Virus record (IMG/VR): IMGVR_UViG_3300035663_000004
Location: 1 to 64,000 of that record
DNA: 64,000 bases
Direction: 5' to 3' (one strand)
Source of the DNA: a virus
The notes below the pieces were generated by a model that was not told the DNA's origin, made no database searches, and saw only the letters and a program-made list of their open reading frames with translations. Shown piece by piece: positions 33,741 through 61,318 of the stretch; positions within the stretch are counted from its first letter, which is position 1, and each line of letters begins with the position of its first letter. The position numbers were made by a program, and so were the translations under genes.

Positions 33741-34086
33741 TTGGAAGTTTTTGGCCTTTCAGGCGGTTGCGTGTTTTTTTTACCACGTTTCGCTGGAAAT
33801 GTACGAATTTGACGCTCGGACGTTTGCCTGGATATTCATGTTGGTTTTCGATATGCTTTTATTTCCGCTCCCGCTGGTCGTTCTTTTGTCGTACATGGTT
33901 TTACAAGGTCAATCTATTTCGGGCTGGAGTCGTTTGGTTCACGCGCTTTATGCGGCCAACGTTTTGTCTGTACTATGGCGTTACCAATCTGAAGTATTAA
34001 ACCCTTTGGTTGTATTTGCTATCATTATTTTTTTAACAACTTATACAATTTTACTACGTTATGGGTTACTACCCTCAGTCAGATAA
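33733..34086 (+). CDS. Membrane protein (about 4 TM)
   Basis: Hydrophobic; likely start MLNWKF at 33733. Confidence 0.55.
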   Translation: MLNWKFLAFQAVACFFYHVSLEMYEFDARTFAWIFMLVFDMLLFPLPLVVLLSYMVLQGQSISGWSRLVHALYAANVLSVLWRYQSEVLNPLVVFAIIIFLTTYTILLRYGLLPSVR

Positions 34087-35653
34087 GACAAAGTTTTGTC
34101 AAGGCGTTGAAATGATGCTCCGTGTTGTTGGTTCAACGATGGGGCCGGGCGGGAATCCGGTTCTTGAATGCGCCGGGCTGGATGCTTCGTATCGTCGCCT
34201 CATCCGGGACGGCAAAGAAACGCTGAAACTGATTCAGCCGAACGACCCGGAAATGTATGAGCCTATTGCCCGAATGAAAGATGTCGCGGAGGCTGTCGTC
34301 CGGCGTGCTGGCGACGCCACAAGTACGGCTACGATCATTTTGGGCAGCGCTTTTCTTCATATCGAAAAGGCTATTAAGGATCACCCGGAACTGAACCGGA
34401 GCCGTATTGCCTTTCACGTTCGGCAGGCTTCAAAGATTGCTTTGGCTGAACTTGAAAAGCGCAAATTGCAGGTTACTACAAGTCAGGACTTGGAGAACGT
34501 TGCAACGATTTGCGCGGCCGGGGATCGTGAAATCGGGTCTGTTATCGGTTCGATGATTGAAAAGATTGGTGCGGACGGGACTGTCAAGGTTGAATACCAC
34601 GACAAACCGGGTGTTGAGGCGGTAATTGTTCCGGGCTACAAGTTCCAGGGCGGTGTGTACGGCATTGACCAATACAATGGTCGGCGCGGCCTCGAATTGG
34701 ACAACCCTCGTGTTGTCGTTGTCGGCGACGAAACGGGTTTGGTGGATTACAAGATGGATGTTGCCCCTATTTTGGCGGAAGCGCAAAAGTTTGGCGACAA
34801 CCGTCCGCTGGTGGTATTCGTGTTGTCTGCCGAAGGGTCTGCCCGCGCTACGTTGCTTCGTCCTTTTGTAAATGGTGCGGATGGCAACACGTTCCGTGCG
34901 CCTGTTTGGCTGGTTCGCATTGGTGCTGGCGGTGTAAATACCTGCGCGGACATTAGTGCTGTTACCGGGGCAACCTTGTTTGGCAAGTTGAACGGCAAAA
35001 TGATTTCCAAGATCAAGGATTCGGACTTTGGCGAAGCGGCTTCGATTGTTGCTACTACGGAATCCGTAACGATTGTTTCTTCGGACGATCAAAAGGCGTC
35101 TGTAAAGGATTATGTGAAGCGGTTGGAGGCTTCGATTGCCGAACATCCGGAGCTGGAGGAAAAAACGCGCGAACGCATTGCTGCGGTAACGGGGGGTGTT
35201 GGATTGATTCGCGTTCCGGCTTCTACGCAATCTTCCGGCTTCTACTATCAGGAGGTTGTTGACGACGCTTGGCGGGCTACGCGGGCGGCTATCAACGGCG
35301 GTGTTTTGCCTGGCGGCGGGGCTGCGTTATCAGGTGTTGCTGAAAATCTATTCTCGATTCATGCAACGGCTTGGTCGGAGGAGGCATTGGTGTACGATGC
35401 CATTGGTCATGCCTTTTACGGTGTATTGAAGACGGTGTGTAACAATGCCGGATTTGAAGTTGACTGGGGTAATATTGAATTTGGTTATGGTAAGACTTAC
35501 GACATTGTTTCCGGTGAAATGAATGTAAGCTCGCTTGAGTGCGGGGTAATTGATTCTGCTCCTGCGATTATGGCTGCTGTTGAATTGGCTTTGGCTGAAC
35601 TTGCTTTGTGGGTCAATTCGGAGTATTTGTTGGTTCAAAAATTTGAGCAATGA
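34061..35653 (+). CDS. groEL: Divergent phage-encoded group I chaperonin (GroEL-like)
   Basis: VGSTMGPGG, IRDGKET, AGDATSTAT, ADISAVTGA, ERIAAVTGGVGLIRV, VDDAWRATRAA..GVLPGGG, GVID; 530 aa. Confidence 0.9.
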   Translation: MGYYPQSDKTKFCQGVEMMLRVVGSTMGPGGNPVLECAGLDASYRRLIRDGKETLKLIQPNDPEMYEPIARMKDVAEAVVRRAGDATSTATIILGSAFLHIEKAIKDHPELNRSRIAFHVRQASKIALAELEKRKLQVTTSQDLENVATICAAGDREIGSVIGSMIEKIGADGTVKVEYHDKPGVEAVIVPGYKFQGGVYGIDQYNGRRGLELDNPRVVVVGDETGLVDYKMDVAPILAEAQKFGDNRPLVVFVLSAEGSARATLLRPFVNGADGNTFRAPVWLVRIGAGGVNTCADISAVTGATLFGKLNGKMISKIKDSDFGEAASIVATTESVTIVSSDDQKASVKDYVKRLEASIAEHPELEEKTRERIAAVTGGVGLIRVPASTQSSGFYYQEVVDDAWRATRAAINGGVLPGGGAALSGVAENLFSIHATAWSEEALVYDAIGHAFYGVLKTVCNNAGFEVDWGNIEFGYGKTYDIVSGEMNVSSLECGVIDSAPAIMAAVELALAELALWVNSEYLLVQKFEQ

Positions 35654-35964
35654 TAATAGTAACTGAAAAGGAGTTCAAGGCCATGCAGCCCGGACTAAAC
35701 CGGGTATTGGTTATTCCGGACGTTGACGATCACGTTGACGCCGCTACGGGCATTCAGATTGCGCGTGACGAAAGCGAGCGCGAACAGGGTGTTATTGTGG
35801 CTTCTTCTGATGACGCCGTAAAGGCCGGGTATAAGGTAGGCGACCATATTGTGTATGCCAAGACAAGCATGGAGGTTTTTGAGTGCGAGGTTAATTTTGG
35901 TGACAGGGTTAATACGCTTCGGCTTCGTGTTGTTGACTGGCACGATATTGCTTTAAAATATTAG
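35650..35964 (+). CDS. groES: GroES-like co-chaperonin
   Basis: QPGLNRVLV, ATGIQI mobile loop, QGVIVA, YKVGDHIVY, DWHDIAL. Confidence 0.85.
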   Translation: MIIVTEKEFKAMQPGLNRVLVIPDVDDHVDAATGIQIARDESEREQGVIVASSDDAVKAGYKVGDHIVYAKTSMEVFECEVNFGDRVNTLRLRVVDWHDIALKY

Positions 35965-35968
35965 GCTT

Positions 35969-36262
35969 ATGACAAGATTGCAGCAAATTGGTGTTTTATT
36001 GATTGCCCTGCATATCGTGTTTAGTTTCACGGGTGTGTATCGGGCTGTTTCTGCTCCGAGTTACGATGTGTATGTTTACACGGGTAATCAGGGGTATTTG
36101 TTCAAGGACGTCCGGGTTGGTTTTTCCAACTTATGCGTTGTTCCGGACAGTTCCGGTGTTTTGGTTTTGTATTCCGGTGTTGCCGGGAAGGAAATATCTG
36201 TGTCGGGTGTAAAGAGTTGTGATATTGTTGCTGTACGAAAACCGCTTTTGTTCCCATGGTAG
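35969..36262 (+). CDS. Hypothetical protein with N-terminal TM/signal
   Basis: 97 aa with hydrophobic N-terminus. Confidence 0.5.
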   Translation: MTRLQQIGVLLIALHIVFSFTGVYRAVSAPSYDVYVYTGNQGYLFKDVRVGFSNLCVVPDSSGVLVLYSGVAGKEISVSGVKSCDIVAVRKPLLFPW

Positions 36263-36957
36263 GAGATTTGTCTTTATATGTTGAAGTCGCTCCGGTTGGG
36301 GACGTTTCTTTTGACAAGGACACGGGGGTGTTGGTCAATGATTTTGTGGATGTCCATATTCTGCGTTCCCTGCTTGTCCGTGTTGTTTCCATACCGGGGC
36401 GGCTTCCGTATTATCGCCATGAGGTAGAGGCTGTTGGTTCGATGTACAAAAAGAGCAAGTCTCGGTTTGTGTCGGAATGGTCTCAACGGATGACGCACCG
36501 TAGTTGCGAGTACGATGTTCCTGTTGAGGTGTCTGTTGGGGACTTGGTTTTAATGCAGCACTTACCGAATTTGGAGCAGCCGGAAGGTGTGCGGTATGTT
36601 AGGTACGATCAGCTGGTTGCCCGGCTTATGAAGTTATCCGGGGGGTTGTATCCTTTGAATGGCCACCTGTTGTTGCGAATGCCGGAAGACGAAAAGGGGT
36701 ATATTGATCCTAAGTATAAGTGGCGAAATTCTTTGACGCGCGGTGAAGTGATTGCGCAAGGGTGTGCGGTAAGGGGGTACAAGCGTTGGCCTGGGTTTCG
36801 GGACAAAGTTTCTGAAAACTGGGTTGGCAGGACGGTTTATTTCCGGCCTTACAGCGCGGTTAGGATTGAGAATGATACGCACCGGACGATGGATTATTCT
36901 TCTCCGTGGCCATATTATCGAATTAGCAAGCCGCAAATCTTATCATGGACGGACTAA
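36256..36957 (+). CDS. Tandem GroES-like domain protein
   Basis: EVSVGDLVL..VRYDQLVA, then YPLNGHLLLR..RGEVIAQG..VGRTVYF. Confidence 0.55.
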   Translation: MVGDLSLYVEVAPVGDVSFDKDTGVLVNDFVDVHILRSLLVRVVSIPGRLPYYRHEVEAVGSMYKKSKSRFVSEWSQRMTHRSCEYDVPVEVSVGDLVLMQHLPNLEQPEGVRYVRYDQLVARLMKLSGGLYPLNGHLLLRMPEDEKGYIDPKYKWRNSLTRGEVIAQGCAVRGYKRWPGFRDKVSENWVGRTVYFRPYSAVRIENDTHRTMDYSSPWPYYRISKPQILSWTD

Positions 36958-37612: not shown

Positions 37613-38056
37613 ATGAAATTCAAAGCACTTCTTTTCTTTTTTGCCTTTTTTTGTGCGGCTTTTGTCTCCGCGCAATCAAACGCATCAAAAGTCGTTCCGT
37701 GGGTTCAAAACGGCGACTCTCTTTCCGAAAACACGACTCTGGCCTATGAGCTTGCCATTGGCGGAACAATTGATAAAACAAAACTGTGGAACTACTCAGT
37801 TATTGTTTTTGCCGATTCGATTTCCGGCGCCAACGCCGGGACGGTTCAACTTCAAATTTCCAACGATCCCGCCGGAACGGCCTCGCCTATTTGGTCTAAT
37901 TATGGCACGGCTGGAACTATTGACGGAACCGCAGATCAGTTTTTTAACTACGAAGGGACGCTCTATGCTCGCCGCCTCCGTGTTTTAATTACCTCTCCTG
38001 CCGGAACCCGAAAAACTGCTATTCGCCTGCGTGGGCTTTTCCGACAAGTTGAATAA
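37613..38056 (+). CDS. Sec-signal beta-sandwich protein (decoration/spike-like)
   Basis: MKFKALLFFFAFFCAAFVSA|Q; GTVQLQISND..W..ARRLRVLIT. Confidence 0.65.
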   Translation: MKFKALLFFFAFFCAAFVSAQSNASKVVPWVQNGDSLSENTTLAYELAIGGTIDKTKLWNYSVIVFADSISGANAGTVQLQISNDPAGTASPIWSNYGTAGTIDGTADQFFNYEGTLYARRLRVLITSPAGTRKTAIRLRGLFRQVE

Positions 38057-38121
38057 AGAAGTTCTGCTGCATACGTTACCGGGCGCACGAAACGGAAGTT
38101 ATCGTGCGCCCACCTTTAAGA

Positions 38122-39369
38122 ATGAAAAAGTTATCTTTATTCATATTATTCTTAGGCTTTTTCTTCCGGTTGTTTAGTCAAGGGACTGTTTTGACAACGG
38201 AGGGCGGGAAGCCTGTTATGTTAAACCTCGACGAAATGCGCACGGTGCGCCCTGTTACGTCGGGGTCTTTGATTTTATACGGATCGGCATTGCGCGCTAT
38301 TTACGTTTCTGAAACGCCTGCGCAAATTGCAGGATCGGGGTGCGGTCAAATAGCGCTTGTAAATACGACCGACGTTGGCAGGAATACGATTGTTGGCATT
38401 GGCGTTCGCCATATTGACGCGATTCGGAAAACATCCGACGGCAAAGCGAGTATTGCAATGAATGCGACCAATATTCCGGCTATGAAAAGCGTGGAGGATT
38501 TTGAAGCGATTGTCTTGCGGATTGCGGTGTGTTCTACCGGCCCTGGAGGCAACGGGTCTTCTGCGGGCGGAGATCGGGACAGTATTGAAGCGATGGTTTA
38601 TGTTCCGACTACCGGGCGGCTTTCACTTATAAATGAATCCGGGGATAGCATTAGCGTAGTTATAAACAATCAAACGCTGTCTGTAACAGGAGATAGTTTA
38701 AGTATTAGTTTTGGCAATAAAGTAAAACTGCCGTCAAAAAGCCTTTTGGATTTGGCATCTGAATTGCCATATTATGTTAGCGATTCCGCGGCGCTGGCTG
38801 CTGGTCTTGCTCCAGGCGCGCCCTATTTGTTGGAGTGCAATAATGACTACAATTTACCTTCCGGGCTTTTCAAGGTTGTAAAAATTTGTGGGTATGACTG
38901 TTTTATTGTTTTACGTTTTTATACAAACGATGAGGAGGCTGCGTCTTCCGGGGTTCCTGTTGGCAGGGAATATGTTTTGGATGATGACAACGCTTTGGGG
39001 GTTCTTTACGGCTTCATTAAAGTTCTTACAAATGATACGCTAAGCACGGGCGGATTGATTTGCAATGACACGCTGCCTGTTTATGCGTCTGACGCTTTGG
39101 CTATATCCGGCGGCCTGGCTGTTGGAGATCAATATGAAACTTCTGACGAAAATACCTATGGCGCTCCTGCTGGAATTGGTCGTATGGTTTCGTCTTCAAA
39201 TACTTTGTCCGGCACAACTCAGGTTTGCTGTGACGAAAATGACAATTTGCCTTTTTTCAGTAACGATTCGGCTGCTATTTCCGCCGGATTGTTGGCCGGA
39301 GAAAAGTATTATCTTTTAAAATCGAATACATACGGATGGCCGTATGGAACAAAAAAGACTGTTCAATGA
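38122..39369 (+). CDS. Sec-signal protein with two FlbD-like N-terminal domains and four LPxYxxDxAAxxxGL repeats
   Basis: MKKLSLFILFLGFFFRLFS|Q; repeats LPYYVSDSAALAAGL, LRFYTNDEEAASSGV, LPVYASDALAISGGL, LPFFSNDSAAISAGL separated by Cys pairs. Confidence 0.65.
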   Translation: MKKLSLFILFLGFFFRLFSQGTVLTTEGGKPVMLNLDEMRTVRPVTSGSLILYGSALRAIYVSETPAQIAGSGCGQIALVNTTDVGRNTIVGIGVRHIDAIRKTSDGKASIAMNATNIPAMKSVEDFEAIVLRIAVCSTGPGGNGSSAGGDRDSIEAMVYVPTTGRLSLINESGDSISVVINNQTLSVTGDSLSISFGNKVKLPSKSLLDLASELPYYVSDSAALAAGLAPGAPYLLECNNDYNLPSGLFKVVKICGYDCFIVLRFYTNDEEAASSGVPVGREYVLDDDNALGVLYGFIKVLTNDTLSTGGLICNDTLPVYASDALAISGGLAVGDQYETSDENTYGAPAGIGRMVSSSNTLSGTTQVCCDENDNLPFFSNDSAAISAGLLAGEKYYLLKSNTYGWPYGTKKTVQ

Positions 39370-42300
39370 ATCAAAAGTTTTTCCTTTCCGCCTTGTTTGT
39401 TTTTTCCTGCGGCATTGCGGGCGCGCAGGGTATCGTAAAGGGTTCCGGCATCATTTACAGCGATTCGATTCCTACGCATAGTGTAGATACGCTAAAAGAA
39501 GCGGAAATTGCTTTGGATGTCCGCACCGGGAATTACTATCAATGGAGCCGCGATTCGGTCAAGTGGGTGTTCTCCGGATTTAGGGTTGAGATCAAGCCCG
39601 GCGCCTGTTCTGCCCCAACGTACATTCCGGGGCGCAATCAGTCTTATTTCGTTTCCGACACTTGCGGAACATTTTATTTTTACAACGACACGCTTTGGAG
39701 GCAGGTTAAGGGGACGATTGCAGACGGAGATAAAGGAGATATAACGGTATCCGGAAACGGACTAAACTGGAATATTGACGCCGGAACGATTGGCGCTACC
39801 GAACTTGCGTCCACGTCTGTTGCTCCGGGAACGTACTCAAATGCTACGGTTACCGTTGACGCCGACGGTCGTATAACAAATGCCGTAAACGGGCCTACCG
39901 GCGCGCGCGGCATATATGATGGATCGGGAACTACCGGAGATTCTACGGTTGTTGCAAGTATCAAAAAGGAAATTCAGTTTAGGTCTGATTCTACGGATGC
40001 TTCATTTTTGGTGGACTTTACGCCGAATGATCTGTATGGAACCAACGCGGCTGTTCGCCCGGACTCTTTGAACTTCCTGTTTTTTAATTTAACGGGTTCA
40101 TCGCGTCTTGTTATTAAGTCGGACGGCATTTCCGCTATTACAAATACGGCAAACCCGTCTTTGCGGCTTACCGGGAACCCTGCGATATACAGCGCGGACT
40201 ACTCTCCGTTTACGGATCGTGAATTGCCGGACTACGCGGCGGTAAAAAAAATCGTTGTAGATTCTGTACAGGTTATAACTGTAACAAACGACACGGCGTA
40301 CTTGAGTCGGTCTGGAGGAATTATTCCATTGAAAAAATACGCTCAGGTTATTGATACGTTTTCAAGGCTTAATGATACGCTTTTTATATCTTTGAGCAAT
40401 GACAACGCCCCTGCTGTTAGTGCCATTATTGACGGTAGCTCAACAAATGAAATTCAGGACTTATCGTTATCCGGTCAAACGCTTTCTTTGAGCAATGACC
40501 CAACAACGGTGACGCTTCCGGTTATTGGAGTATCCGGCGGAACAGGAATTACAACAAGTTCGTCGGGCGGCACGGTAACGGTGACAAACGCCGCGCCGGA
40601 TCAAACCGTCTCAATTAGCGGATCGGGTATTACAACCGTTACGGGAACTTATCCGGTCTTTACCGTCACCAGCACGGAAAACGACGGATCAACTTCAAAT
40701 GAAGGTAGCCTTACAGTAGGAGCCGGAATAGCAACTACAAGCGTAATATCCTCAAATACAAGCGGAAGCACAAACGTCACCATTGAAGCCGGGTCTAATA
40801 TAACGTTAAGTGAATCAGGAAATACAATTACGATTGCATCTACGGCTGCCGGGGTAACGGATGGAGATAAAGACGATATTACGGTTTCCGGCTCCGGCGC
40901 AAACTGGAATATTCGAAATGACTCGGTAACAAGCCCTAAAATATTGGACGGAACTATTGCGCTGGCAGACATGGGCGCTAACAGCGTGGACTCAACAAAG
41001 GTGGGCGACAAAACGCTTAGTCTTAGTGATCTCAACGGGGCATGGGGGGTACAAAATGGATTCGTGTTGAAATGGAATGGGTCTAACTGGCGACCCGGGG
41101 CGGATAATACCGGGGCGGACGGGAACGGCATTTATGGCGGCGACGGAGATATACCAACCGGCACCGACGCGACATTGCCGCTCAATAGTTTTTTTAGGTT
41201 TGAATGGCCAAGCGGAAATACAGCCTTTATAATGGATGATTTTGGCGACACGGTTTATTTGGCCGACCCTTCGCTGGCTTCTTCTGTTTTGGTTTCCGCT
41301 TCAAAGGTCGGCCTTCGCTCAACAGGGAATATCGAACTTTGGGGTGGCACGGGCGGCGCTAAACTTCGGATGTTAGAACCGACGGGATCGGGAACTAACT
41401 ATACTGAAATTCAGGTCGGCGCACAGTCAACGGACATAACTTATACTTTGCCAACAACAACCGGATCGAATGGTCAATACCTGCAATTTACGACTGGCGG
41501 CCAGTTGCAATGGTCAACGGTGGCGGCCGGGGTAACGGATGGAGATAAAGACGATATTACGGTTTCCGGCTCCGGCGCAAACTGGAACATACGCAACGAT
41601 TCAGTAACAAGCCCAAAGATATTAGACGGGACGATTGCGCTGGTGGACATGGGCGCAAATAGTGTTGACTCAACAAAAATAGGCGACAAAACTGTAAGCC
41701 TTAGCGATCTTAATGGTGCGTGGGGCGCAAATGCAGGATCGGTGCTAAAATGGGACGGGAACAACTGGAGGCCGGGAACAGACAATAATACCGACGCGCA
41801 AACGCTATCTATTAATAGTACAACGGTAGGCAGTAGCGAGCGGTTTGCTGTTTCGATTTCCAGCGGGAATACGGTTAATTTTGACGTACCACAAGGGACG
41901 GTTACCTCGGTTGGTATCACTCAACCCGCTGCCGGAATAACAGTAACTAATAGCCCTGTAACAACAAGCGGAAATATAAGCCTTGCGCTTGCAAATGACC
42001 TTGGCGCGGTTGAAGGGCTTACCACGAACGGTATTGCGGTGCGGACTGGTGACAACACATGGACAACAAGAAGTATAGCGGGCGCGGCGGACCCTTCATC
42101 CACCGCATTACCTACTATAAACGATTTTAATGGCGTCAATGGTAACCCCACAATATCAATAAGCACATCAACAAGCACCACAAAACTAACGGCGCTTGTT
42201 GCTACAACCGCTAACATTACATTAAGCGGGACGCAAACGATTGATGGTGTTGCGCTAAGTGCAGACAACAGGGTGCTGGTTAAAAACCAAAATACAGCGA

Positions 42301-45300
42301 GCCAAAATGGCTTATATGTAGTTAGGACAACAGCGTGGGTCAGAGCAACAGACCTTGATGCAAATACCGAATTAAACAATGGAGTTTTGGTTTACATTAG
42401 TCGCGGGACAGCAAATGGAGGCAAATACTTTAGGCTCGCAACGTCAACAGAACCGCCATTAACCATAACCACAAGCGCTTTAAGCTTTAGCGAAACCCTT
42501 GGCGCTGGCGTGACGGACGGCGACAAGGATGATATAACGGTATCAAATTCAGGCGCAAACTGGAATATTAGAAACGATAGTGTTACGACTCCAAAAATCC
42601 TAAACGGAACAATCCTGTTTGAAGACATTGGCCAAAACAGCGCATCGCCCGGACAGGTTATCAAGTGGAACGGGACAGCTTGGGCGGCGGCGGCCGACAA
42701 TACAGGCGGATCGGGTTCGACTGATTTAAGCTGGACGGGCGCTTCTTCGCCTTATACGCTTAATAGTTCTTCTGGCACGGATGTGGATTTCGCGCAAGGC
42801 GGCGGCATAACGCTTTCAACAAGCGGGGCAACCTTGACTATTGCGGCTACGGATCAGTCCACGACAAACGAATTACAGACACTTTCTACGGCTACAAATA
42901 CGGTAACGCTAAGCAATAGCGGCGGCAGTTTTACGATTGCAGGCGGCGGCATAAACGCTGCTTCAACATCGGGTTCTACTATTACAATAACCGGAACAGA
43001 GGTGGATGGCTCAACGACAAATGAGATACAAGACCTTTCGCTTTCAGGCCAAACGCTTTCTTTGAGCAGCGACGCTACAACGGTGACGCTTCCGGTTATC
43101 GCGGTATCGGCTGGAACTGGAATATCCACAAGTTCTTCCGGCGGCACGGTGACGGTGACTAATTCGGCGCCCGACCAAACAGTAGGAATAACCGGAACCG
43201 GAATAACAGTAGTTTCTAATTACCCAAACTTTACTCTTACGGCGGCCGATCAGTCAGCCTCAAACGAAGTGCTAACAATTTCCGATGGCACAAACACCGA
43301 GGCTCTGGGCGGTCAAACATTAACAGTTGCAGGCGGTGGTATCAATACGGCATCCTATAATGCTACAACCAATACGCTTACGATTAGCGGCACCGAGAAT
43401 GACGGATCAACCTCAAACGAAGGTATTTTAGGTGTAGGCGCTGGATCGGGAACAACCGCTACAATTACAACAAACACAACAACCGGGAATGCTGTAACTA
43501 TCGCGGGCGGTGGTATTGTGGCTATTACAAAAACAACAGGTACGAACGGCGGCACTATTACTATTACCGGCACCGAGGCGGATGGCTCAACTACGAATGA
43601 ATTGCAAACGCTTTCCACGGCAACAAATACCGTTACACTCAGTAACAGCGGCGGAAGTTTTACAATCTCTGGCGCTGGCATTAATACGGCATCTACTTCC
43701 GGCTCAACTATAACTATAACAGGAACCGAGAACGACGGCTCAACTACAAATGAACTTCAGACGTTAAGTACGGCGACAAACACCGTTACGCTTTCTAATT
43801 CAGGCGGCAGCTTCACAATAGCAGGTGGTGGTATCAATACAGTATCCACAAGCGGGTCAACTATTACTGTTACTGGAACTGAAAACGACGGCTCAACCAC
43901 AAACGAACTGCAAACAATCGCCAACACATCCGACGCAACCAGTCATACGGTGACGCTGTCTAATTCGGGCGGGTCGGTGCAGTTGATTCAAGGCGCTGGT
44001 ATTGATCTTACAACAGGCGGGAACAGCGGCGCGGGAACGGTTACGATTGCGGCCACAAATAGCGGCACGGTTACATCGGTAGGCATCACCGCACCGGCCG
44101 CCGGCATAACCGTAAGCAATAGCCCTATCACGTCGAGCGGGAATATTACACTTGCGCTTGCGGATGATTTAGCGGCGGTAGAGGGATTAACGAGTATAGG
44201 TGTTGCTGTTAGAACCAATAATGTGCCGCCAACATGGACAACAAGGTCTTTAACGGTAGCTAATCCTATTTCTATACAAAACGCTACGGGCGCAAGCGAT
44301 AATCCGTTTATATATTTAAACAATGGAGATTACGGCGATATAAGCATTGCAAACTCTAATTTGCCCCTCGGGCTTCGTGGCGATGTTTGGACGATTGATG
44401 CCAACGTAGTAGATTCAACAAACGTCGGCAACAATACGTTGAGCGTTGACGATATTAACGGCGGGTGGGGCGTTCAAACCGGGTCTGTATTGAAATGGAA
44501 CGGGACAAACTGGCGTCCGGGAACAGACGAAACAGGCGGCGGCGGCGGCGGCGTGACCGACGGCGACAAAGGCGACATAACGGTATCCGCTTCCGGCGCT
44601 ACGTGGACGATTGATAACACCGTTGTGAATTACGCAAAAATCCAAAACATATCCAACACAAACCGCATTTTAGGCCGGGCAACGGCCGGGGCTGGATCAG
44701 TCGAAGAGATAACAGTTGGTGGCGATTTGACCCAAAGCGGGTCAAATTTTACGGTTGCTAACGACGCCATCACTTTTGCGAAAATGCAGAACAGCGCAGC
44801 CGCCGGGCTTTCGGTAGTTGGGCGAAGCGCAAACAGCGCCGGGGATTTCGCCGAAATAAACGCGGGCACAGACGGCTTTGTGTTGCGCAGGTCGGGTACT
44901 ACTTTGGGCTTTGGGACGGTGGCGACGGCGGGGATTGCGGACGCGGCGGTGACTTACGCAAAAATCCAAAACGTAGCAGGTAACAGCGTGTTGGCTCGTA
45001 CTGCCAGCGGATCGGGCACCCTTAGCGAGGTGGCGCTTTCGGCTTCTAATTTGTTAGGTCGCGGTAGTACGGGTAATGTGAGCGCGATTACGTTGGGTAG
45101 TAATTTGTCTATGTCGGGCACAGCCCTTAACACGACCGGGCATCCAACAATCACGGGAACGCCAACGACAAACGCGATACCGAAATGGACATCAAGTTCG
45201 GCGCTGGGTTCGACGATTGTCCAAGAGTCAATTTCTGGCGCGGACACGATCATTCAGATCGTTGGCCGGGACGCTTTGCGGTTGCCGCTGGGGACTACGG

Positions 45301-46223
45301 CGGAGCGGCCGGGAACGCCTACTATTGGTATGACGCGCTATAATACTACTAATGGGGCGTTTGAGTATTATGACGCGGACGCGTGGGAAACGCCGCTGAT
45401 TTCGGCTACGGGTACGGGACTTGGTACGGCGGGAAATGTGTTTTTTGCGGATGCGAATGGGCGGGCAAGCGGATCAACAAACCTTTTTTGGGACGCGACT
45501 AATAGCAGGCTGGGTGTTGGGACAAGTTCGCCGCAAAGTCAGTTTCACTTTGTAACGAACGTTTCAGGCGACCCATCAAACTTCGTTGTAGAGCGATACA
45601 CAGCAAACGCAAACATTATCCAGCGCCGCGCGAACGGAACTATTGCGTCGCCAACAGCCTGCCTTAATGGAGATGTATTGGGCGCAAACGCTTTTCGTGG
45701 CCATAACGGGACGGCGTTCGCATCCCTTTCATCTGTAGTCATGCTTGCTGTTGCTACGGAAAACTGGACAACCTCTGCAAATGGCGCGAGGTTTACAATT
45801 AACACGATTCCTAACGGGGCAACTTCAGGAAGTGCACGATTTACAATTAACCACAACGGCAACGTAAATATTGGTAGCGGCACAAGTCCTGAAAACAGGT
45901 TGCAAATTGAAGGCACCCTCGGTCGCAACGCGCCCGTATCAACTGACGCCACAGCATACGTCATGACAAATGACGTATCTACCACGTGGCTAATTTGTGA
46001 CGAAACAGCAACAACAACGATCACCCTTCCGGCGGCATCAAGTTGGAGCGGCCGCGAACTCACAATCAAAAATATCACCGCTTTTGCGGTGAACTCAAAC
46101 GCGTCTAACGTTTTGCCTATTGGCAGCAATACGGCGGGAACGGCGATACTTTCAGCAACGGCTGGATCGTGGGCGCTGCTGGTATCAAATGGCACGAACT
46201 GGGTTATAATGCAACGCGGATAA
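39366..46223 (+). CDS. Giant Sec-signal modular fibre/adhesin-like protein
   Basis: MNQKFFLSALFVFSCGIAGA|Q; repeated GDK(G/D)DITVS, DGSTTNE(L/I)QTLS and VLKWNG..W units; tail-fibre motif ATTANITLSGTQTIDGVAL..RVLVKNQ..ASQNGLY. Confidence 0.75.
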   Translation: MNQKFFLSALFVFSCGIAGAQGIVKGSGIIYSDSIPTHSVDTLKEAEIALDVRTGNYYQWSRDSVKWVFSGFRVEIKPGACSAPTYIPGRNQSYFVSDTCGTFYFYNDTLWRQVKGTIADGDKGDITVSGNGLNWNIDAGTIGATELASTSVAPGTYSNATVTVDADGRITNAVNGPTGARGIYDGSGTTGDSTVVASIKKEIQFRSDSTDASFLVDFTPNDLYGTNAAVRPDSLNFLFFNLTGSSRLVIKSDGISAITNTANPSLRLTGNPAIYSADYSPFTDRELPDYAAVKKIVVDSVQVITVTNDTAYLSRSGGIIPLKKYAQVIDTFSRLNDTLFISLSNDNAPAVSAIIDGSSTNEIQDLSLSGQTLSLSNDPTTVTLPVIGVSGGTGITTSSSGGTVTVTNAAPDQTVSISGSGITTVTGTYPVFTVTSTENDGSTSNEGSLTVGAGIATTSVISSNTSGSTNVTIEAGSNITLSESGNTITIASTAAGVTDGDKDDITVSGSGANWNIRNDSVTSPKILDGTIALADMGANSVDSTKVGDKTLSLSDLNGAWGVQNGFVLKWNGSNWRPGADNTGADGNGIYGGDGDIPTGTDATLPLNSFFRFEWPSGNTAFIMDDFGDTVYLADPSLASSVLVSASKVGLRSTGNIELWGGTGGAKLRMLEPTGSGTNYTEIQVGAQSTDITYTLPTTTGSNGQYLQFTTGGQLQWSTVAAGVTDGDKDDITVSGSGANWNIRNDSVTSPKILDGTIALVDMGANSVDSTKIGDKTVSLSDLNGAWGANAGSVLKWDGNNWRPGTDNNTDAQTLSINSTTVGSSERFAVSISSGNTVNFDVPQGTVTSVGITQPAAGITVTNSPVTTSGNISLALANDLGAVEGLTTNGIAVRTGDNTWTTRSIAGAADPSSTALPTINDFNGVNGNPTISISTSTSTTKLTALVATTANITLSGTQTIDGVALSADNRVLVKNQNTASQNGLYVVRTTAWVRATDLDANTELNNGVLVYISRGTANGGKYFRLATSTEPPLTITTSALSFSETLGAGVTDGDKDDITVSNSGANWNIRNDSVTTPKILNGTILFEDIGQNSASPGQVIKWNGTAWAAAADNTGGSGSTDLSWTGASSPYTLNSSSGTDVDFAQGGGITLSTSGATLTIAATDQSTTNELQTLSTATNTVTLSNSGGSFTIAGGGINAASTSGSTITITGTEVDGSTTNEIQDLSLSGQTLSLSSDATTVTLPVIAVSAGTGISTSSSGGTVTVTNSAPDQTVGITGTGITVVSNYPNFTLTAADQSASNEVLTISDGTNTEALGGQTLTVAGGGINTASYNATTNTLTISGTENDGSTSNEGILGVGAGSGTTATITTNTTTGNAVTIAGGGIVAITKTTGTNGGTITITGTEADGSTTNELQTLSTATNTVTLSNSGGSFTISGAGINTASTSGSTITITGTENDGSTTNELQTLSTATNTVTLSNSGGSFTIAGGGINTVSTSGSTITVTGTENDGSTTNELQTIANTSDATSHTVTLSNSGGSVQLIQGAGIDLTTGGNSGAGTVTIAATNSGTVTSVGITAPAAGITVSNSPITSSGNITLALADDLAAVEGLTSIGVAVRTNNVPPTWTTRSLTVANPISIQNATGASDNPFIYLNNGDYGDISIANSNLPLGLRGDVWTIDANVVDSTNVGNNTLSVDDINGGWGVQTGSVLKWNGTNWRPGTDETGGGGGGVTDGDKGDITVSASGATWTIDNTVVNYAKIQNISNTNRILGRATAGAGSVEEITVGGDLTQSGSNFTVANDAITFAKMQNSAAAGLSVVGRSANSAGDFAEINAGTDGFVLRRSGTTLGFGTVATAGIADAAVTYAKIQNVAGNSVLARTASGSGTLSEVALSASNLLGRGSTGNVSAITLGSNLSMSGTALNTTGHPTITGTPTTNAIPKWTSSSALGSTIVQESISGADTIIQIVGRDALRLPLGTTAERPGTPTIGMTRYNTTNGAFEYYDADAWETPLISATGTGLGTAGNVFFADANGRASGSTNLFWDATNSRLGVGTSSPQSQFHFVTNVSGDPSNFVVERYTANANIIQRRANGTIASPTACLNGDVLGANAFRGHNGTAFASLSSVVMLAVATENWTTSANGARFTINTIPNGATSGSARFTINHNGNVNIGSGTSPENRLQIEGTLGRNAPVSTDATAYVMTNDVSTTWLICDETATTTITLPAASSWSGRELTIKNITAFAVNSNASNVLPIGSNTAGTAILSATAGSWALLVSNGTNWVIMQRG

Positions 46224-46238
46224 AACAAACATTAAAAT

Positions 46239-46871
46239 ATGAAACACATCCTTTTCCTTCTCCTTTTCCCGGCTGCCTTGTTGGCGCAAGATCAACCGGA
46301 CACAACCGCCGTCACCTATGAAAACCGGGGCGGCATCTTTTACACCGTCACGAAAACAACGTTTCAATCCGGGCGGATCGTGACCGAAGAAACGCCGCTT
46401 GGCGCGGACACAGCAGGCGTGGTAAACGCCATTATCGGGCCGGTATTCACAGCCACAACCGACGCCGCAAACAAGGCTATACAGGTGGCACGGCTTAACC
46501 GGGTGCGGCAACAGGTGGTGGCGGCCAACGCGGCGCTCAACGGGCTTGTTGGACAGGATTATTTTAGCGTGGTACAGAACGCCGTTGGCCAGGAATTTTT
46601 GCCGGATTCATTACAAAGTATCCCGGCTACTATGCGCGTTGACGGCGGCTCTCCCATCACCGCATCAATCCGGCGAAACGCCGCCGGGCGCTTGGTATTT
46701 AGGCAGGGAACGCAGAACTTTACGCTGGATATCGTTAGCCGTAATTGGATACGCTTGCGGCGCTATCAGGGTACGGAAACGCTGGCGACAGACGCCGTGA
46801 TTGTTGATCTGTTCAAAGAAACTGAAGGGCGCTGGATTTCTCTTGATCTTAAATATAATCTGCGAAAATAA
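46239..46871 (+). CDS. Sec-signal hypothetical protein
   Basis: MKHILFLLLFPAALLA|Q. Confidence 0.65.
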   Translation: MKHILFLLLFPAALLAQDQPDTTAVTYENRGGIFYTVTKTTFQSGRIVTEETPLGADTAGVVNAIIGPVFTATTDAANKAIQVARLNRVRQQVVAANAALNGLVGQDYFSVVQNAVGQEFLPDSLQSIPATMRVDGGSPITASIRRNAAGRLVFRQGTQNFTLDIVSRNWIRLRRYQGTETLATDAVIVDLFKETEGRWISLDLKYNLRK

Positions 46872-47989
46872 TGGCGAACAAAAAAATTTCCGAACTTGAA
46901 CCCGGCCAACAGGTAGTTGCGGACACGCAGTTACCCGGTTCACTGGGCGCGCAGACGTTCAAGTACACGGCTGACCAACTGGCTGCCTACGTTCAATCTA
47001 AGGACACGGCGGGCGATATTGACGGGCCGCTGACCGGTGCCGAAGTAGTCGGCATTCGCGGGCGCTCGGTATCTGCGACGGAGCCAACGAACGGGCAGAT
47101 ATTGCAATGGAACGGTACGGCATGGATCCCGGTCGCTGCGCCTGCCGCTGCGTTCACGCCGGTGGTATACGAATATAGCAACCCCGTTACCAACGAACTG
47201 CTTACAATCCCGACCGGCGCAACGCTCATAGATATTATTTGCATCGGCGCTGGCGCTGGCGGCGGTTCCGGGCGCCGGGGCGCTGCGGGGACGGTTCGCT
47301 GTGGCGGAGGCGGTGGCGGTTCCGGTACTTTTTCTACCATCACGGTACGCGCGGGCGATATTGACGGGCCGCTAAAAGTTACGGTCGGCGCTGGAGGGAG
47401 CGGTGGTACAGCCCGTACAGTGGACAGTACAGACGGCGCGAACGGTAGCCCTGGCACGTCTTCGCAGGTTACGTCGAACACGAACGCGATATTGTGTTTT
47501 GCGCTCCGAGGCGGAGCGGGAATAGGGGGTACCACATCAAGTGGCCCTGGCGGTGCTGCTGGTACGTCTGGCGACTTTCAAGGCAGCGCCGGCAATTCGG
47601 CGTCAACAAGCGGCGGAGCGGGGCAGGACGCAGGCGCTGCTTCGTCGAGAGGCCCGTCGGGTGGCGGCGCTGGTGGCGGTATTACATCCGGCAACGCCGC
47701 ATCGGACGGTAGCAGCGGGCAGTCGGTGGTTCACGGGCAAATCTTGGTCGTGAACCGGGGCACGGTCGCAAACCCAAACGCGTCCGGGGGGTATTCGCCG
47801 TTACAGGGGCAAACAACTGGCGGCGGCGGCGGCGGCGGTGGAGCGTCCAGCCTAACCGGCGCTGGAGGACTTGGCGGTAACGGCGTACGCGGCGGCGGTG
47901 GCGGTGGTGGTGGTGCGAGTGTGAACGGAAACAACTCCGGCGCGGGCGGCAACGGCGGCAATGGTTACGTGCGTATAATCTTTTTGTAA
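46871..47989 (+). CDS. Glycine-rich accessory fibre protein (KKISEL N-terminus)
   Basis: MANKKISEL, PTNGQILQWNGTAW, glycine-rich domain IGAGAGGGSG..GGNGYVRI. Confidence 0.7.
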   Translation: MANKKISELEPGQQVVADTQLPGSLGAQTFKYTADQLAAYVQSKDTAGDIDGPLTGAEVVGIRGRSVSATEPTNGQILQWNGTAWIPVAAPAAAFTPVVYEYSNPVTNELLTIPTGATLIDIICIGAGAGGGSGRRGAAGTVRCGGGGGGSGTFSTITVRAGDIDGPLKVTVGAGGSGGTARTVDSTDGANGSPGTSSQVTSNTNAILCFALRGGAGIGGTTSSGPGGAAGTSGDFQGSAGNSASTSGGAGQDAGAASSRGPSGGGAGGGITSGNAASDGSSGQSVVHGQILVVNRGTVANPNASGGYSPLQGQTTGGGGGGGGASSLTGAGGLGGNGVRGGGGGGGGASVNGNNSGAGGNGGNGYVRIIFL

Positions 47990-48679: not shown

Positions 48680-50104
48680 ATGCCCGCATCATATCTTCAT
48701 GGGGTAGAAACCATTGAAATCCAAAAAGGCGCGCGCCCGGTGCAAGTCGTGAAATCGGCCGTTATCGGTCTGGTCGGCATCGCTCCGAAAGGCACGCCCA
48801 ATTCGCTTACCCTGGTGCTGAATGCGCAGGAAGCCGCGACGAAGTTCGGCAGCGAACTGCCGGGGTTTTCAATTCCGCAGGCCCTGTCCGCAATCTATGC
48901 ACAGGGTGCGGGAACGGTTCTGGTAGTGAACGTTTTCGATCCGGCGACCATGACGACCGCCGTAACAAACGAAACGAAAACAATTACGAACGGCAAGGCG
49001 AAAACCACGAATGCCCCAACAAACACGGTGGTCGTGACGAACAACGCAGGCACAACGACCTACGTCGCTGGCACGGACTACTCGATTGACGACTTCGGAA
49101 ACCTGACGGTACTGAACTTCACCTCCATTGCCGAGAGTAGCGCAATTAAGTTCGCCTATTCGCACCTGAACGCATCCGCGATCACGCCGTCAGTAATTAT
49201 CGGCAGCGTGAACGGTTCCGGCGTTCGCACCGGGTTCAAGTCCCTTGCGCTGGCTTACTCGACGTTCGGATACACCCCGAAGGTGCTTATTGCGCCGAAC
49301 TACTCGCAGGAATCCACCGGAGCCGTTGCTGCTGAAATGATTGCCCAGGCCGAAGCGCTGAAGGCGGTCGCAATTATTGACACGCCGAACAACACGACGG
49401 TGGCAACGGCACTCACAGGCCGCGGGCCGTCGGGTACGCTGGCAGGCTGGAAAACCAGCAGCAAGCGCGCCGTATTGGCATACCCTAACGTGAAGGTGTA
49501 CGACGCCGCTACTGACGCCGTGCAGGTTCGCCCGTATTCCGGGTACCTCGCTGGTGTTATCGCCGCAACCGACCTGAATGAGGGTTACCATATTAGCCCG
49601 TCGAATCACGAAATTCAGGGCGTAGTCGGGCCGGAGCGTACGATCACGGCTGCAATTAACGACGCATCCACGGAGGCCAACGCGCTGAACGAAGTCGGCA
49701 TCGTGACGCAGTTCAACTCGTTTGGCACCGGCCTGCGCGTCTGGGGCAACCGCTCCGCATCGTGGCCTACCAACACAGCGCCGGATAACTTCATCCCGGT
49801 TCGCCGGACGGCTGATATCCTGCACGAATCCGTAGAATACGCGATGCTGCCGTTCATTGATAAGCCGCTGAATCAGGCTACCATTGACGCGATCCGCGAA
49901 TCCGTGAACGCGTTCATCCGTACGCTGATTCAGCGGGGCGCGCTGATTGACGGGAAATGTATCTACAACAAGGACAAGAACCCGGCAACCGAACTGGCAC
50001 TGGGACACGTCACGTTCGATATCGAGTTCCTGCCGCCGACGCCCGCCGAACGGATCACGTTCGAGAGCTTCATTGATATTAACCTTTTCCGCTCACTCGC
50101 ATAA
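48680..50104 (+). CDS. Contractile tail sheath protein (P2 FI-like)
   Basis: YLHGVETIE..SAVIGLVG, GYHISPSN, GLRVWGNR, FIPVRRT, PPTPAERITF. Confidence 0.95.
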   Translation: MPASYLHGVETIEIQKGARPVQVVKSAVIGLVGIAPKGTPNSLTLVLNAQEAATKFGSELPGFSIPQALSAIYAQGAGTVLVVNVFDPATMTTAVTNETKTITNGKAKTTNAPTNTVVVTNNAGTTTYVAGTDYSIDDFGNLTVLNFTSIAESSAIKFAYSHLNASAITPSVIIGSVNGSGVRTGFKSLALAYSTFGYTPKVLIAPNYSQESTGAVAAEMIAQAEALKAVAIIDTPNNTTVATALTGRGPSGTLAGWKTSSKRAVLAYPNVKVYDAATDAVQVRPYSGYLAGVIAATDLNEGYHISPSNHEIQGVVGPERTITAAINDASTEANALNEVGIVTQFNSFGTGLRVWGNRSASWPTNTAPDNFIPVRRTADILHESVEYAMLPFIDKPLNQATIDAIRESVNAFIRTLIQRGALIDGKCIYNKDKNPATELALGHVTFDIEFLPPTPAERITFESFIDINLFRSLA

Positions 50105-60001: not shown

Positions 60002-60874
60002 ATGGCAAATCTGACTGAATCACCGGTGTACGAAGCCGGTATATATCAATTAGAAACGACCGACCCGGTATTGGGCGGTTCTTCCGGCATTGCTAACCTT
60101 CAGGGCAAGCAACTCGCCAACCGGACGGCGTGGCTGAAGCAAAAAATTGACAACTTAGGCTTCGGTACAACAGGCGTACCTGTGTACGCTGGCAATCTAA
60201 ACAGCCTGCTGGATACCGGCTGGTGGTACGCCACGACGGCAACAACCAACAAGCCGACGGGCGCAAGCGAGGGGTTCGTCCAGGTGGTCGAATACGTCAC
60301 GCTTGGGTACTCTTATCAAGTGTATCACTCGATCACCGTTGACCGAATCTGGACGCGCCGGATTACGGACGGGCCAACGTTCGGGGCGTGGTCGGAAATC
60401 GGGCGCGCTGCCGACCTGGCTACGCTGAACGATCAACTGATCGGGAGCGTGGCGGCGTTCGCAATGAATACGCCGCCGACGGGCTGGTTCAAGTGCAATG
60501 GCGCTGCGGTATCACGCTCGCTGTACGCCGGGCTGTTCGCGAAGATCGGCACGACGTTCGGCGTCGGAAACGGAAGCACGACGTTCAATCTGCCAGACTT
60601 GCGCGGTGAGTTCGTACGGGGCTGGGACGACGGGCGCGGACTTGACGTTGGGCGCGTGTTTGGTTCGGCACAGGGCTACGCGACCGAAGCGCACACGCAC
60701 TTTCTTCGTATGCAGACGCTCGGAGGAATTAACAACAACGGGAGCAGTCCGTATGCAACGACCGTAGCGAATAGCAACGATAGCACAACCACGATGACGC
60801 AGGCGCAGGTCGGCGGCGAAGGGGAAACGAGACCGCGAAACATTGCCCTGCTATACGCAATCAAATGGCAATAA
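60002..60874 (+). CDS. Tail fibre protein (pyocin-knob-like + collar domain)
   Basis: IYQLETTDPVLGG..LANRT; PPTGWFKCNG..FNLPDLRGEFVRGWD; ETRPRNIAL. Confidence 0.9.
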   Translation: MANLTESPVYEAGIYQLETTDPVLGGSSGIANLQGKQLANRTAWLKQKIDNLGFGTTGVPVYAGNLNSLLDTGWWYATTATTNKPTGASEGFVQVVEYVTLGYSYQVYHSITVDRIWTRRITDGPTFGAWSEIGRAADLATLNDQLIGSVAAFAMNTPPTGWFKCNGAAVSRSLYAGLFAKIGTTFGVGNGSTTFNLPDLRGEFVRGWDDGRGLDVGRVFGSAQGYATEAHTHFLRMQTLGGINNNGSSPYATTVANSNDSTTTMTQAQVGGEGETRPRNIALLYAIKWQ

Positions 60875-60889
60875 ACAATCATTGATAAT

Positions 60890-61318
60890 ATGAACACACA
60901 ACACACACACGAACCCGTGCCCGTCTATTGTTACGACGACACGGGCAGGTACACGTCATGGGAATACGCCGACCCGAATCCGCTGGAGCCGGGCAAATAC
61001 CTATTGCCGGTAAACGCTACGCTGACGCCGCCGCCTGACTGGAGCAAGGGCGAAGTAGCGCGCTGGGACGGCGAACGCTGGGCGGTGGAGCCTGACGATA
61101 CAGAGGTTCAGCGCCATGCAGCGTTTCAGCGATCAAGGCGCAACTACCTGTTGGCCGCATCGGACTGGACGCAATTACCTGACGCGCCACTGACGGCTGA
61201 TGAGGCGCAGCGATGGCGCGAATACCGACACGCGCTGCGTACAATTACGACAGACCCGGCATGGCCTTACGTTGCGTTTCCTGATCCGCCGGAAAAGGAG
61301 CCAATAATACAGGCTTAG
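60890..61318 (+). CDS. Tail fibre assembly chaperone
   Basis: LLPVNATLTPPP, RNYLLAASDWTQLPD..WREYRHALR. Confidence 0.85.
   Translation: MNTQHTHEPVPVYCYDDTGRYTSWEYADPNPLEPGKYLLPVNATLTPPPDWSKGEVARWDGERWAVEPDDTEVQRHAAFQRSRRNYLLAASDWTQLPDAPLTADEAQRWREYRHALRTITTDPAWPYVAFPDPPEKEPIIQA

Follow-up and report, generated by a model that had tools for sequence, protein, structure and literature searches.

A giant fibre cassette with conserved predicted Sec signals in the structural operons of lake phages

Tailed-phage morphogenesis is taught as a cytoplasmic process. We asked whether this also holds for a giant tail-fibre-like protein encoded, together with three neighbouring genes, between positions 37,613 and 46,871 of a viral DNA stretch of 64,000 nucleotides (the window: positions 1 to 64,000 of IMG/VR record IMGVR_UViG_3300035663_000004), all four deduced proteins of which start with a putative signal peptide followed by Gln. 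The first-pass annotation of this region had proposed that a multi-component fibre is exported. The signals kept by the relatives strongly indicate that the proteins of this cassette are exported, while docking of the periplasm-matured fibre on virions at lysis is the reading that we favour, though tentatively. The window is the 5' part of a viral contig of 87,523 bp which joins two phages, called A and B here and described further below.

Analysis of the nucleotide sequence indicated that four consecutive open reading frames (ORFs) of 157, 421, 2295 and 210 amino acids (aa), all on the plus strand, lie between a chaperonin gene pair and a myovirus tail module (sheath, 48680-50104). Each product carries a K/R n-region, a hydrophobic core of 10-14 residues and small residues at -3/-1 followed by Gln, the letters around the predicted cleavage sites (arrows) being VSA↓QSN, LFS↓QGT, AGA↓QGI and LLA↓QDQ. 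The true starts of the first three ORFs are likely internal Met codons. An exported 147-aa protein (37613..38056) would start at M11 with MKFK...VSA↓QSNASK, an exported 415-aa module-array protein (38122..39369) at M7 with MKKLSL...LFS↓QGTVL, and the giant fibre at M11, position 39366, with MNQKFF...AGA↓QGIVK; the first two are present in a protein atlas from exactly these starts. The fibre start overlaps the stop of the module-array gene by 4 nt (ATGA), and the fibre signal peptide MNQKFFLSALFVFSCGIAGA↓QG (39366..39425) was assigned from its signal features and from relatives. The fourth gene, coding for an exported 210-aa partner (46239..46871; MKHILF...LLA↓QDQP, signal MKHILFLLLFPAALLA↓QDQP), is given in the window as the allele of phage B.

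A three-part feature test was applied to all ORFs of at least 60 aa in the whole 87.5-kb contig, requiring a 9-residue stretch with hydrophobicity ≥ 2.0, a K or R ahead of it and, at about residues 16-32, small-x-small↓Q. Four of 109 ORFs passed, exactly these four neighbours, for which the first-pass annotation had noted signals, and the chance of such a placement is about 2e-5 by our own count. An alternative cytosolic isoform was considered and rejected, no in-frame Met being found shortly downstream of the signals.

The signals are conserved among relatives. The partner family has 45 relatives, and all 21 aligned members, down to 48% identity, keep the signal with Q17 invariant. In the module-protein family (26 relatives) the test was passed by 12 of the 13 members with complete N-termini, the 13th carrying its signal after an over-long called start. 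Signal and Gln were found in ten of ten fibre representatives and at all 13 fibre loci. Pattern scans returned 11 IMG/VR loci and one Lewinellaceae metagenome-assembled genome (MAG) contig; in all their fibres the signal ends in A-x-A↓Q, and the motif (T/G)-A-G-I-(P/A)-Y-T comes next. The letters of the signals vary widely while the n/h/c architecture, the small -3/-1 residues and the +1 Gln are kept in three unrelated protein families, and this drift under a fixed architecture is the signature of selection for Sec/signal peptidase I (SPI) cleavage and glutaminyl cyclase processing. Gln at +1 after SPI cleavage is the Q-rule of Bacteroidota (PMC5837995, PMC10653852). Among the top 150 proteins sharing the fibre repeats about 15 have signals and about 130 are plainly cytoplasmic at the N-terminus, so the signal is a specific addition; every one of them that has the N-terminal domain described below (N-domain) also has signal and Gln. 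The four-gene set is a mosaic in which only the fibre, the module and often the partner recur across phages, the first gene being restricted to A-type phages. The exported multi-component fibre of the first-pass annotation is thus supported by the conservation of predicted signals, but not as a fixed four-gene system.

No type IX secretion system (T9SS) C-terminal domain (type A TIGR04183, type B TIGR04131, Por_Secre_tail) was found in the four proteins with Pfam and NCBIfam at E ≤ 0.01, nor any other export family, in agreement with the first reading. Searches of the four proteins against Pfam, PHROGs and NCBIfam gave no match at the same threshold. Cys near the cleavage site occurs only in the A-type fibre (VFSC↓G, weakly lipobox-like and inside the signal) and in locus L018 (IAAC↓A); most fibre relatives have no Cys near the site, and a lipobox with +1 Cys, as for signal peptidase II, is not conserved in the family. 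As neither a T9SS domain nor a family-wide lipobox nor a barrel was found, the default destination would be the periplasm. Among the four proteins, the Bacteroidota O-glycosylation sequon D[ST][AILVMT] is over-represented in the smaller three (z 2.6-4.3) and not in the fibre (z 0.6), which does no more than suggest that exported proteins are O-glycosylated.

Since the fourth gene of the window belongs to another phage than the first three, the structure of the contig has to be given here. Two lake phages that occur together, A and B, were joined by the assembler into the chimeric IMG/VR contig, via a fibre/partner cassette common to both. Its final 526 bp (86998-87523) duplicate 44535-45060 at 97.5% identity, the internal copy carrying the alleles of A and the terminal copy those of B. 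When the contig end is read on into 45061, an intact 675-aa fibre of phage B is obtained with its own signal, MINKYL...AFS↓QIVK. Logan contigs from four lake metagenomes were placed on 40-49 kb and their read depths were compared. In runs X1/X2 the depth was ~21/8 in the left part, ~61/19 in the right part and 78/26, which is the sum, across 44571-46449; ten variant letters in these runs were exactly those of the contig-end copy, and a loose end at 44538 was identical to 86971-87000. In run X3, from which B is absent, one contig spans 42523-45466 and a second covers 45924-46857 and then continues for 14 kb in unrelated sequence. The partner gene also has a variant at low depth, which is closed by a stop of its own. 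Depths, variant letters, loose end, X3 contigs and partner variant together indicate that two phages co-occur, and since the X3 contigs bridge 42523-45466 and 45924-46857 without B, phage A has a full fibre and a partner gene of its own. Integration of B into A was rejected in favour of the chimera, given the threefold difference in depth and the presence of A without B in run X3.

Phage A extends from 1 to about 46.9 kb (GC ~0.47) and encodes a chaperonin and a 3142-aa virion protein, while phage B is a circular P2-like myovirus of 42,463 bp (GC ~0.55) with an ordinary signal-less tail fibre of its own (60002-60874) and an assembly protein (60890-61318). They have about 2.3 kb in common, namely the last 558 aa of the fibre and the partner gene, and it is within this segment that the assembler passed from A to B (junction zone 44934-46450). 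The 2295-aa ORF is a faithful picture of the phage A fibre, and the printed partner gene is the allele of B.

The fibre has a conserved N-terminus and, among the fibres compared, a mosaic shaft and tip. Directly after the cleavage site stands the N-domain of about 105 aa (39426..39740, delimited from the 13 loci), with the motifs G-I-(P/I)-Y...P-(T/S)-H and C..P.Y.PG..QS.FV...C...Y.Y....W and two invariant Cys; no PDB relative was found for it by profile search. It is followed by an A-specific shaft (39741..44534) with GVTDGDK/VLKWNG units, TNE(I/L)Q units and a 9NX3-like domain at ~42159-42563, and by a poly-Gly hinge and the 558-aa C-terminal region common to A and B (44535..46223), which holds DUF5907 repeats, a stretch at ~45549-45938 similar to the mosaic adhesive trimer (MAT) fibres of Bdellovibrio and a terminal knob.

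The virion-type motifs reported earlier are real. GVTDGDKxDITVS / VLKWNG..W units occur in four copies (Pfam DUF5907, E 2.9e-14), and a full HMMER search with the N-terminal 288 aa of the B fibre found the repeat in 9466 proteins. Residues 942-1076 (ATTANITLSG...RVLVKNQ) match the PDB entry 9NX3, a 'capsid decoration protein' (E 3e-7), and residues 2072-2201 match the Bdellovibrio MAT fibres 8OML/8ON4/8OL4 (E ~1e-9). Comparison by tblastn with cultured phages revealed sub-domains common to proteins of Bradyrhizobium, Pseudomonas, Enterobacter and Synechococcus phages annotated as tail fiber, and the last ~80 aa match the C-terminal ends of podophage fibres from Pseudomonas and Enterobacter. 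When the region, the N-domain and the module protein were compared with cultured phages by megablast and tblastn, no hit was obtained. Identity to the fibre of locus L002, an A-type relative, is 81% over the first 431 aa, after which the two sequences diverge. In L002 (5213-11395) the signal-bearing fibre of 2060 aa ends in a Gly-rich tail similar to the minor tail protein of B, which makes this tail another swappable tip. Comparison of the contig with itself revealed no second, signal-less copy of the fibre tip.

The C-terminal half of the 415-aa protein consists of four copies of a 40-aa module, Y-V-D-D-x-A-A-I-A-x-G-L-x-x-G-x-x-Y...N-D-x-I-P-x-G-x-x-K, at 38758-38889, 38902-39030, 39067-39189 and 39241-39366 on the plus strand (module hidden Markov model (HMM), E 1e-17 to 1e-19). 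This half, with its four modules, is constant in the module-array family, while the N-terminal halves are of three unrelated kinds. Six Cys are invariant in it (C239, C256, C260, C314, C369 and C370), next to the two of the N-domain, in line with the oxidative folding for which the first-pass annotation had pointed to paired Cys. A profile search found no PDB relative of the module, and the AlphaFold2 (AF2) model of the array is poor (predicted local distance difference test (pLDDT) 45), suggesting at most a beta-alpha-beta-beta unit.

Elsewhere the module was found once in a signal-less mini-protein of 72 aa just before the fibre of B, once or twice at the C-terminus of terminator-like proteins and once at the C-terminus of 819-aa proteins. 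The HMM detected it in 13 of 13 fibre loci, directly upstream of the fibre with a 4-nt overlap in 11 of them. On the contig the HMM gave no occurrence outside the known module sites, and when IMG/VR was scanned with the module, every contig returned was one already known to carry the fibre. In the two most divergent fibre loci, L016 (~678) and L017 (~209), the module does not adjoin the fibre; a small ORF some 9 kb upstream, possibly in the neck region, ends with it. In a protein of 334 aa (P0261) a signal, a fibre-type N-domain without the Cys pair, poly-Gly and a four-module array are naturally fused.

For the 210-aa partner, the allele of phage A differs by ~7% over 46500-46727 from the printed allele of B and ends in KYILRF. 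Its AF2 model (pLDDT 79) has three strands, three helices and a seven-strand beta domain. Profiles of Pfam, PHROG, NCBIfam and PDB gave no significant match, including none to the Tfa family, and no fold was convincing in Foldseek searches of PDB and BFVD or in a VIA-wide comparison: the best hit was one BFVD protein (E 5e-6), and Z was at most 6.3, on a helical hairpin. The partner moves with the tip between A and B, yet accompanies a different tip in locus L014, which weakens a role as tip-specific chaperone.

Every context in which the cassette was found is a phage structural operon, on at least four backbones. Siphovirus-like contigs carry a tape measure, the 819-aa virion protein, a protein of 196-245 aa with a tail-terminator-like domain (phrog_347, E 1e-11) and no signal, the fibre, the partner, a holin-like protein and an M15 endolysin-like protein. 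In L018 the fibre lies between the terminator-like gene and the major tail protein, in phage B between the head-completion genes and the sheath, and in A-type phages it precedes terminase and portal. With the N-domain profile 301 genomes of the host order were searched and a single one was hit, on two short contigs that look phage-like; this and the phage contexts speak against ordinary chromosomal T9SS cargo. One partner homologue is named from a Saprospiraceae MAG, and the runs that contain the sequence are lake and freshwater metagenomes. The genome hit, the MAG homologue and the lake runs make freshwater Saprospiria (Bacteroidota) the likely hosts.

To place the cassette among known systems, it was compared with classical tail fibres such as P2 H/G, Mu S/U and those of T4. 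The likeness consists of a conserved N-terminus, a mosaic distal part, a small downstream gene and an adaptor-like upstream gene; the tip cassette is exchanged horizontally and the repeats are common to thousands of fibres. To our knowledge, all known classical tail fibres lack signal peptides and are folded in the cytoplasm. On the contrary, the fibre studied here, its partner and, in A, the module array have conserved SPI signals together with Cys pairs, and the partner has no Tfa-family match. Spanins, signal-bearing endolysins and the Llp/Cor/Bor lipoproteins are Sec-dependent phage proteins that act in the envelope, but these are small lysis or exclusion proteins and none is a multi-kilodalton fibre with receptor-binding-type tips.

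A MAT fibre of Bdellovibrio bacteriovorus consists of a signal, a conserved beta-rich N-domain of ~130 aa, a trimeric phage-like fibre and a swappable tip, and is displayed on the surface (Caulton et al. 2024, PMC10769870). The Sec signal, the conserved N-domain next to it, the phage-tail-fibre-like shaft and the swappable tip are shared with the fibre described here, the N-domains being likened by description; likeness in sequence was seen for fibre residues 2072-2201, the PDB entries for MATs being C-terminal fragments only. MATs are chromosomal genes of the predator that displays them and are used in prey handling, whereas the present genes, found in phage contexts as described, belong to the structural operons of phages of Bacteroidota, obey the Q-rule and are coupled with the 40-aa module and an exported partner. 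MAT fibres are nevertheless the closest described analogue of the phage fibre. A non-Bacteroidota protein with the signal AYA↓AC, a Cys-pair domain, poly-Gly and GVTDGDK repeats aligns with N-domain and hinge (hhalign 93.7%) and sits among cellular-type genes. Seen beside the loci found here, this analogue and the MATs indicate that the design is present in cells and in phages. A cellular-looking contig, L028 (497-12339; GC 0.59, Ada-like and SppA-like neighbours), carries two giant fibre-like genes in tandem that overlap by 4 nt. A non-Bacteroidota signal, a Cys-pair domain and RCC1 repeats are present in the second, and the locus represents a MAT-like system.

In phages of Porphyromonas gingivalis, five unnamed genes without assigned function were reported to have Q-rule signal peptides, and their products were discussed as modifiers of the host envelope (Matrishin et al. 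2023, PMC10367356). They are alike by description in being genes of Bacteroidota phages with predicted SPI cleavage exposing Gln, while neither a fibre architecture nor coupling to a structural operon nor a conserved cassette is described for them (PMC10367356). A literature search gave no description of Sec-exported fibres in tailed phages. The earlier view of the locus as an undescribed system has nevertheless to be softened, since the MATs show the same design in a cell and Q-rule proteins were known from Porphyromonas phages.

How the cassette may work is best told as one course of events, of which export, processing, binding of the module to the N-domain and the time of joining are the parts that we infer, while anatomy, conservation, phage context and co-occurrence are observed. 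The locus would encode the fibre of a lytic-type phage that infects freshwater Saprospiria. Its four late genes would be translated with cleavable Sec/SPI signals obeying the Q-rule, so that the products would leave the cytoplasm and be cut to an N-terminal Gln, presumably cyclised to pyroglutamate. Folding would take place in the periplasm, where the conserved Cys pairs could be oxidised. The mature fibre of 2275 aa would be anchored by its conserved N-terminal domain, from which a long shaft of repeats leads to a tip that is exchanged horizontally; it would be accompanied by the exported partner and, in A, by the exported four-module protein. The 40-aa module may be the docking site for the fibre N-domain. 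In three of the four phage types the module is carried by signal-less virion-type proteins, so that module and N-domain would meet only when the inner membrane is breached, and periplasm-matured fibres would join the cytoplasmically assembled particles only once holin and endolysin have removed the barrier, as accessory neck or side fibres. This tentative preference for docking at lysis is based on the strict co-occurrence of module and N-domain with the module mostly on signal-less proteins, on an evolution like that of receptor-binding proteins (the N-terminus is kept, the tips are mosaic, and tip plus partner are nearly identical in the unrelated, co-occurring A and B), and on the embedding of the genes, with translational coupling, in late structural operons. 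Fibreless T4 particles and free fibres can join in lysates. Possible, though somewhat short of probable, is the wider proposal of a two-compartment assembly, in which Sec-exported, pyroglutamate-bearing, disulfide-bonded and perhaps O-glycosylated fibres with their co-exported partner would be snapped onto finished particles at lysis via a 40-aa docking module on neck or tail proteins, and which could be an evolutionary source of cellular MAT-type adhesins.

Several points weigh against docking at lysis. We know of no tailed phage that matures virion fibres outside the cytoplasm, and the window for joining at lysis is short. The module protein of phage A is itself exported, so that a further link to the particle would be needed. 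The exported fibre seems dispensable for the basic particle, since B has an ordinary signal-less fibre and chaperone. The closest analogues, the MATs, are on cells and the non-Bacteroidota analogue is in a cellular context; the P0261 fusion fits an N-domain acting as general anchor with modules as cargo equally well as it fits binding partners; and the partner is not strictly tip-specific, as L014 shows. An alternative which we take seriously while holding it doubtful is that the exported fibre never joins a virion and works on the envelope as an adhesin of the MAT kind, its N-domain anchoring it to the cell surface or within the periplasm. There it might stick infected cells to neighbours or particles, mask receptors against superinfection or against loss of progeny on debris, or bind envelope glycans. 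The conserved signals and Q-rule, the sequence matches in PDB (which include MAT fibres of the same design that are surface displayed), the hhalign match of N-domain and hinge to a signal-bearing fibre in a cellular context, the separate conventional fibre set of B and the export predicted for all four proteins of A, module array included, are all in line with such an adhesin, as is the envelope-modifying role proposed for the Q-rule proteins of Porphyromonas phages (PMC10367356). However, no outer-membrane route was found with Pfam and NCBIfam (T9SS domain, family-wide lipobox or barrel), the genes are not moron-like but coupled in translation to signal-less virion-type proteins in late operons, and the module stands on neck and tail proteins that would never meet the periplasm before lysis. 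Likewise, there is no second signal-less tip copy that a decoy would protect, and the family is absent from host chromosomes, its one hit among the 301 genomes being on phage-like contigs.

It is unlikely, on the other hand, that these are conventional cytoplasmic tail fibres whose hydrophobic segments are buried attachment helices or are removed by a phage protease. Shaft and tip are indeed ordinary phage fibre modules, the genes are in structural operons, and predicted 'signal peptides' of Porphyromonas phage capsid proteins were ascribed to prohead protease cleavage (PMC10367356). Yet the letters of the segments drift while n/h/c architecture, -3/-1 residues and +1 Gln are invariant in three unrelated families, the Cys pairs are conserved, and the signal is missing from most of the top repeat-sharing fibres, which marks it as a specific addition. 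That the cluster is an artefact of chimeric assembly or gene calling is very improbable. The contig is chimeric, as judged from the end repeat and the threefold depth difference, and the printed fourth gene is that of B; but the X3 contigs bridge the fibre and reach the partner without B, the partner allele of A reads to its own stop, and the same gene order with signals recurs in the independent contigs L002/L019 and L009-L018.

Phage-borne fibres with working secretion signals would either break the cytoplasmic rule or be receptor-binding fibres deployed on or in the host envelope, and either outcome would be a new piece of phage-host biology; two-compartment assembly, if true, would be a mechanism not known for any tailed phage. 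Through the cassette, phage fibres are connected with the recently described MAT adhesins of predators, and attention is drawn to a 40-aa module that is portable and would serve docking or adhesion. The Q-rule marks the host phylum from sequence alone, which is useful for uncultured lake viruses. A practical outcome is that the IMG/VR contig is recognised as a two-phage chimera joined via its fibre cassette.

Of the remaining features, the 147-aa protein has a mature part of ~127 aa with no Cys. Its 89%-type relative in L002 retains signal and Gln, and in the protein atlas it falls in viral clusters (score 0.95). The decoration-like beta-sandwich of the first-pass annotation was only hinted at for this protein by a sub-threshold similarity to F5/8 type C (E 0.065), and it may be a discoidin-like beta-sandwich; the 9NX3 match to a 'capsid decoration protein' lies in the fibre. 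A 9-bp GC-rich hairpin, GGGCGCACG...CGTGCGCCC (38078-38108), fills most of the 65-nt gap between the first two exported genes and has no T-run after it. Scans for sigma-70 promoters and terminators gave nothing exceeding shuffles.

Directly upstream of the exported cluster, a GroEL-like protein (34061-35653; phrog_5725, E 1e-55) and a GroES-sized gene occupy the region 34061-36957 on the plus strand, and this order of chaperonin followed by exported cluster is also present in L002. The terminase of L002 shows a distant likeness to its counterparts in Cellulophaga and Flavobacterium phages. The 3142-aa ORF of phage A (10986-20414, minus strand) matches the 'virion structural protein' phrog_22602 (E 7e-36) and may be a giant internal or ejected virion protein. 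In B the partner gene is followed by a Gly_rich_2 (PF21722) 'minor tail protein' (46871-47989, plus strand). A contig of run X1 joins the reverse complement of ~61158, in the tail-fibre assembly gene of B, to 46903, the start of this Gly-rich minor tail protein gene, and the join may reflect a related strain or, in phage B itself, a rearranged or invertible segment.

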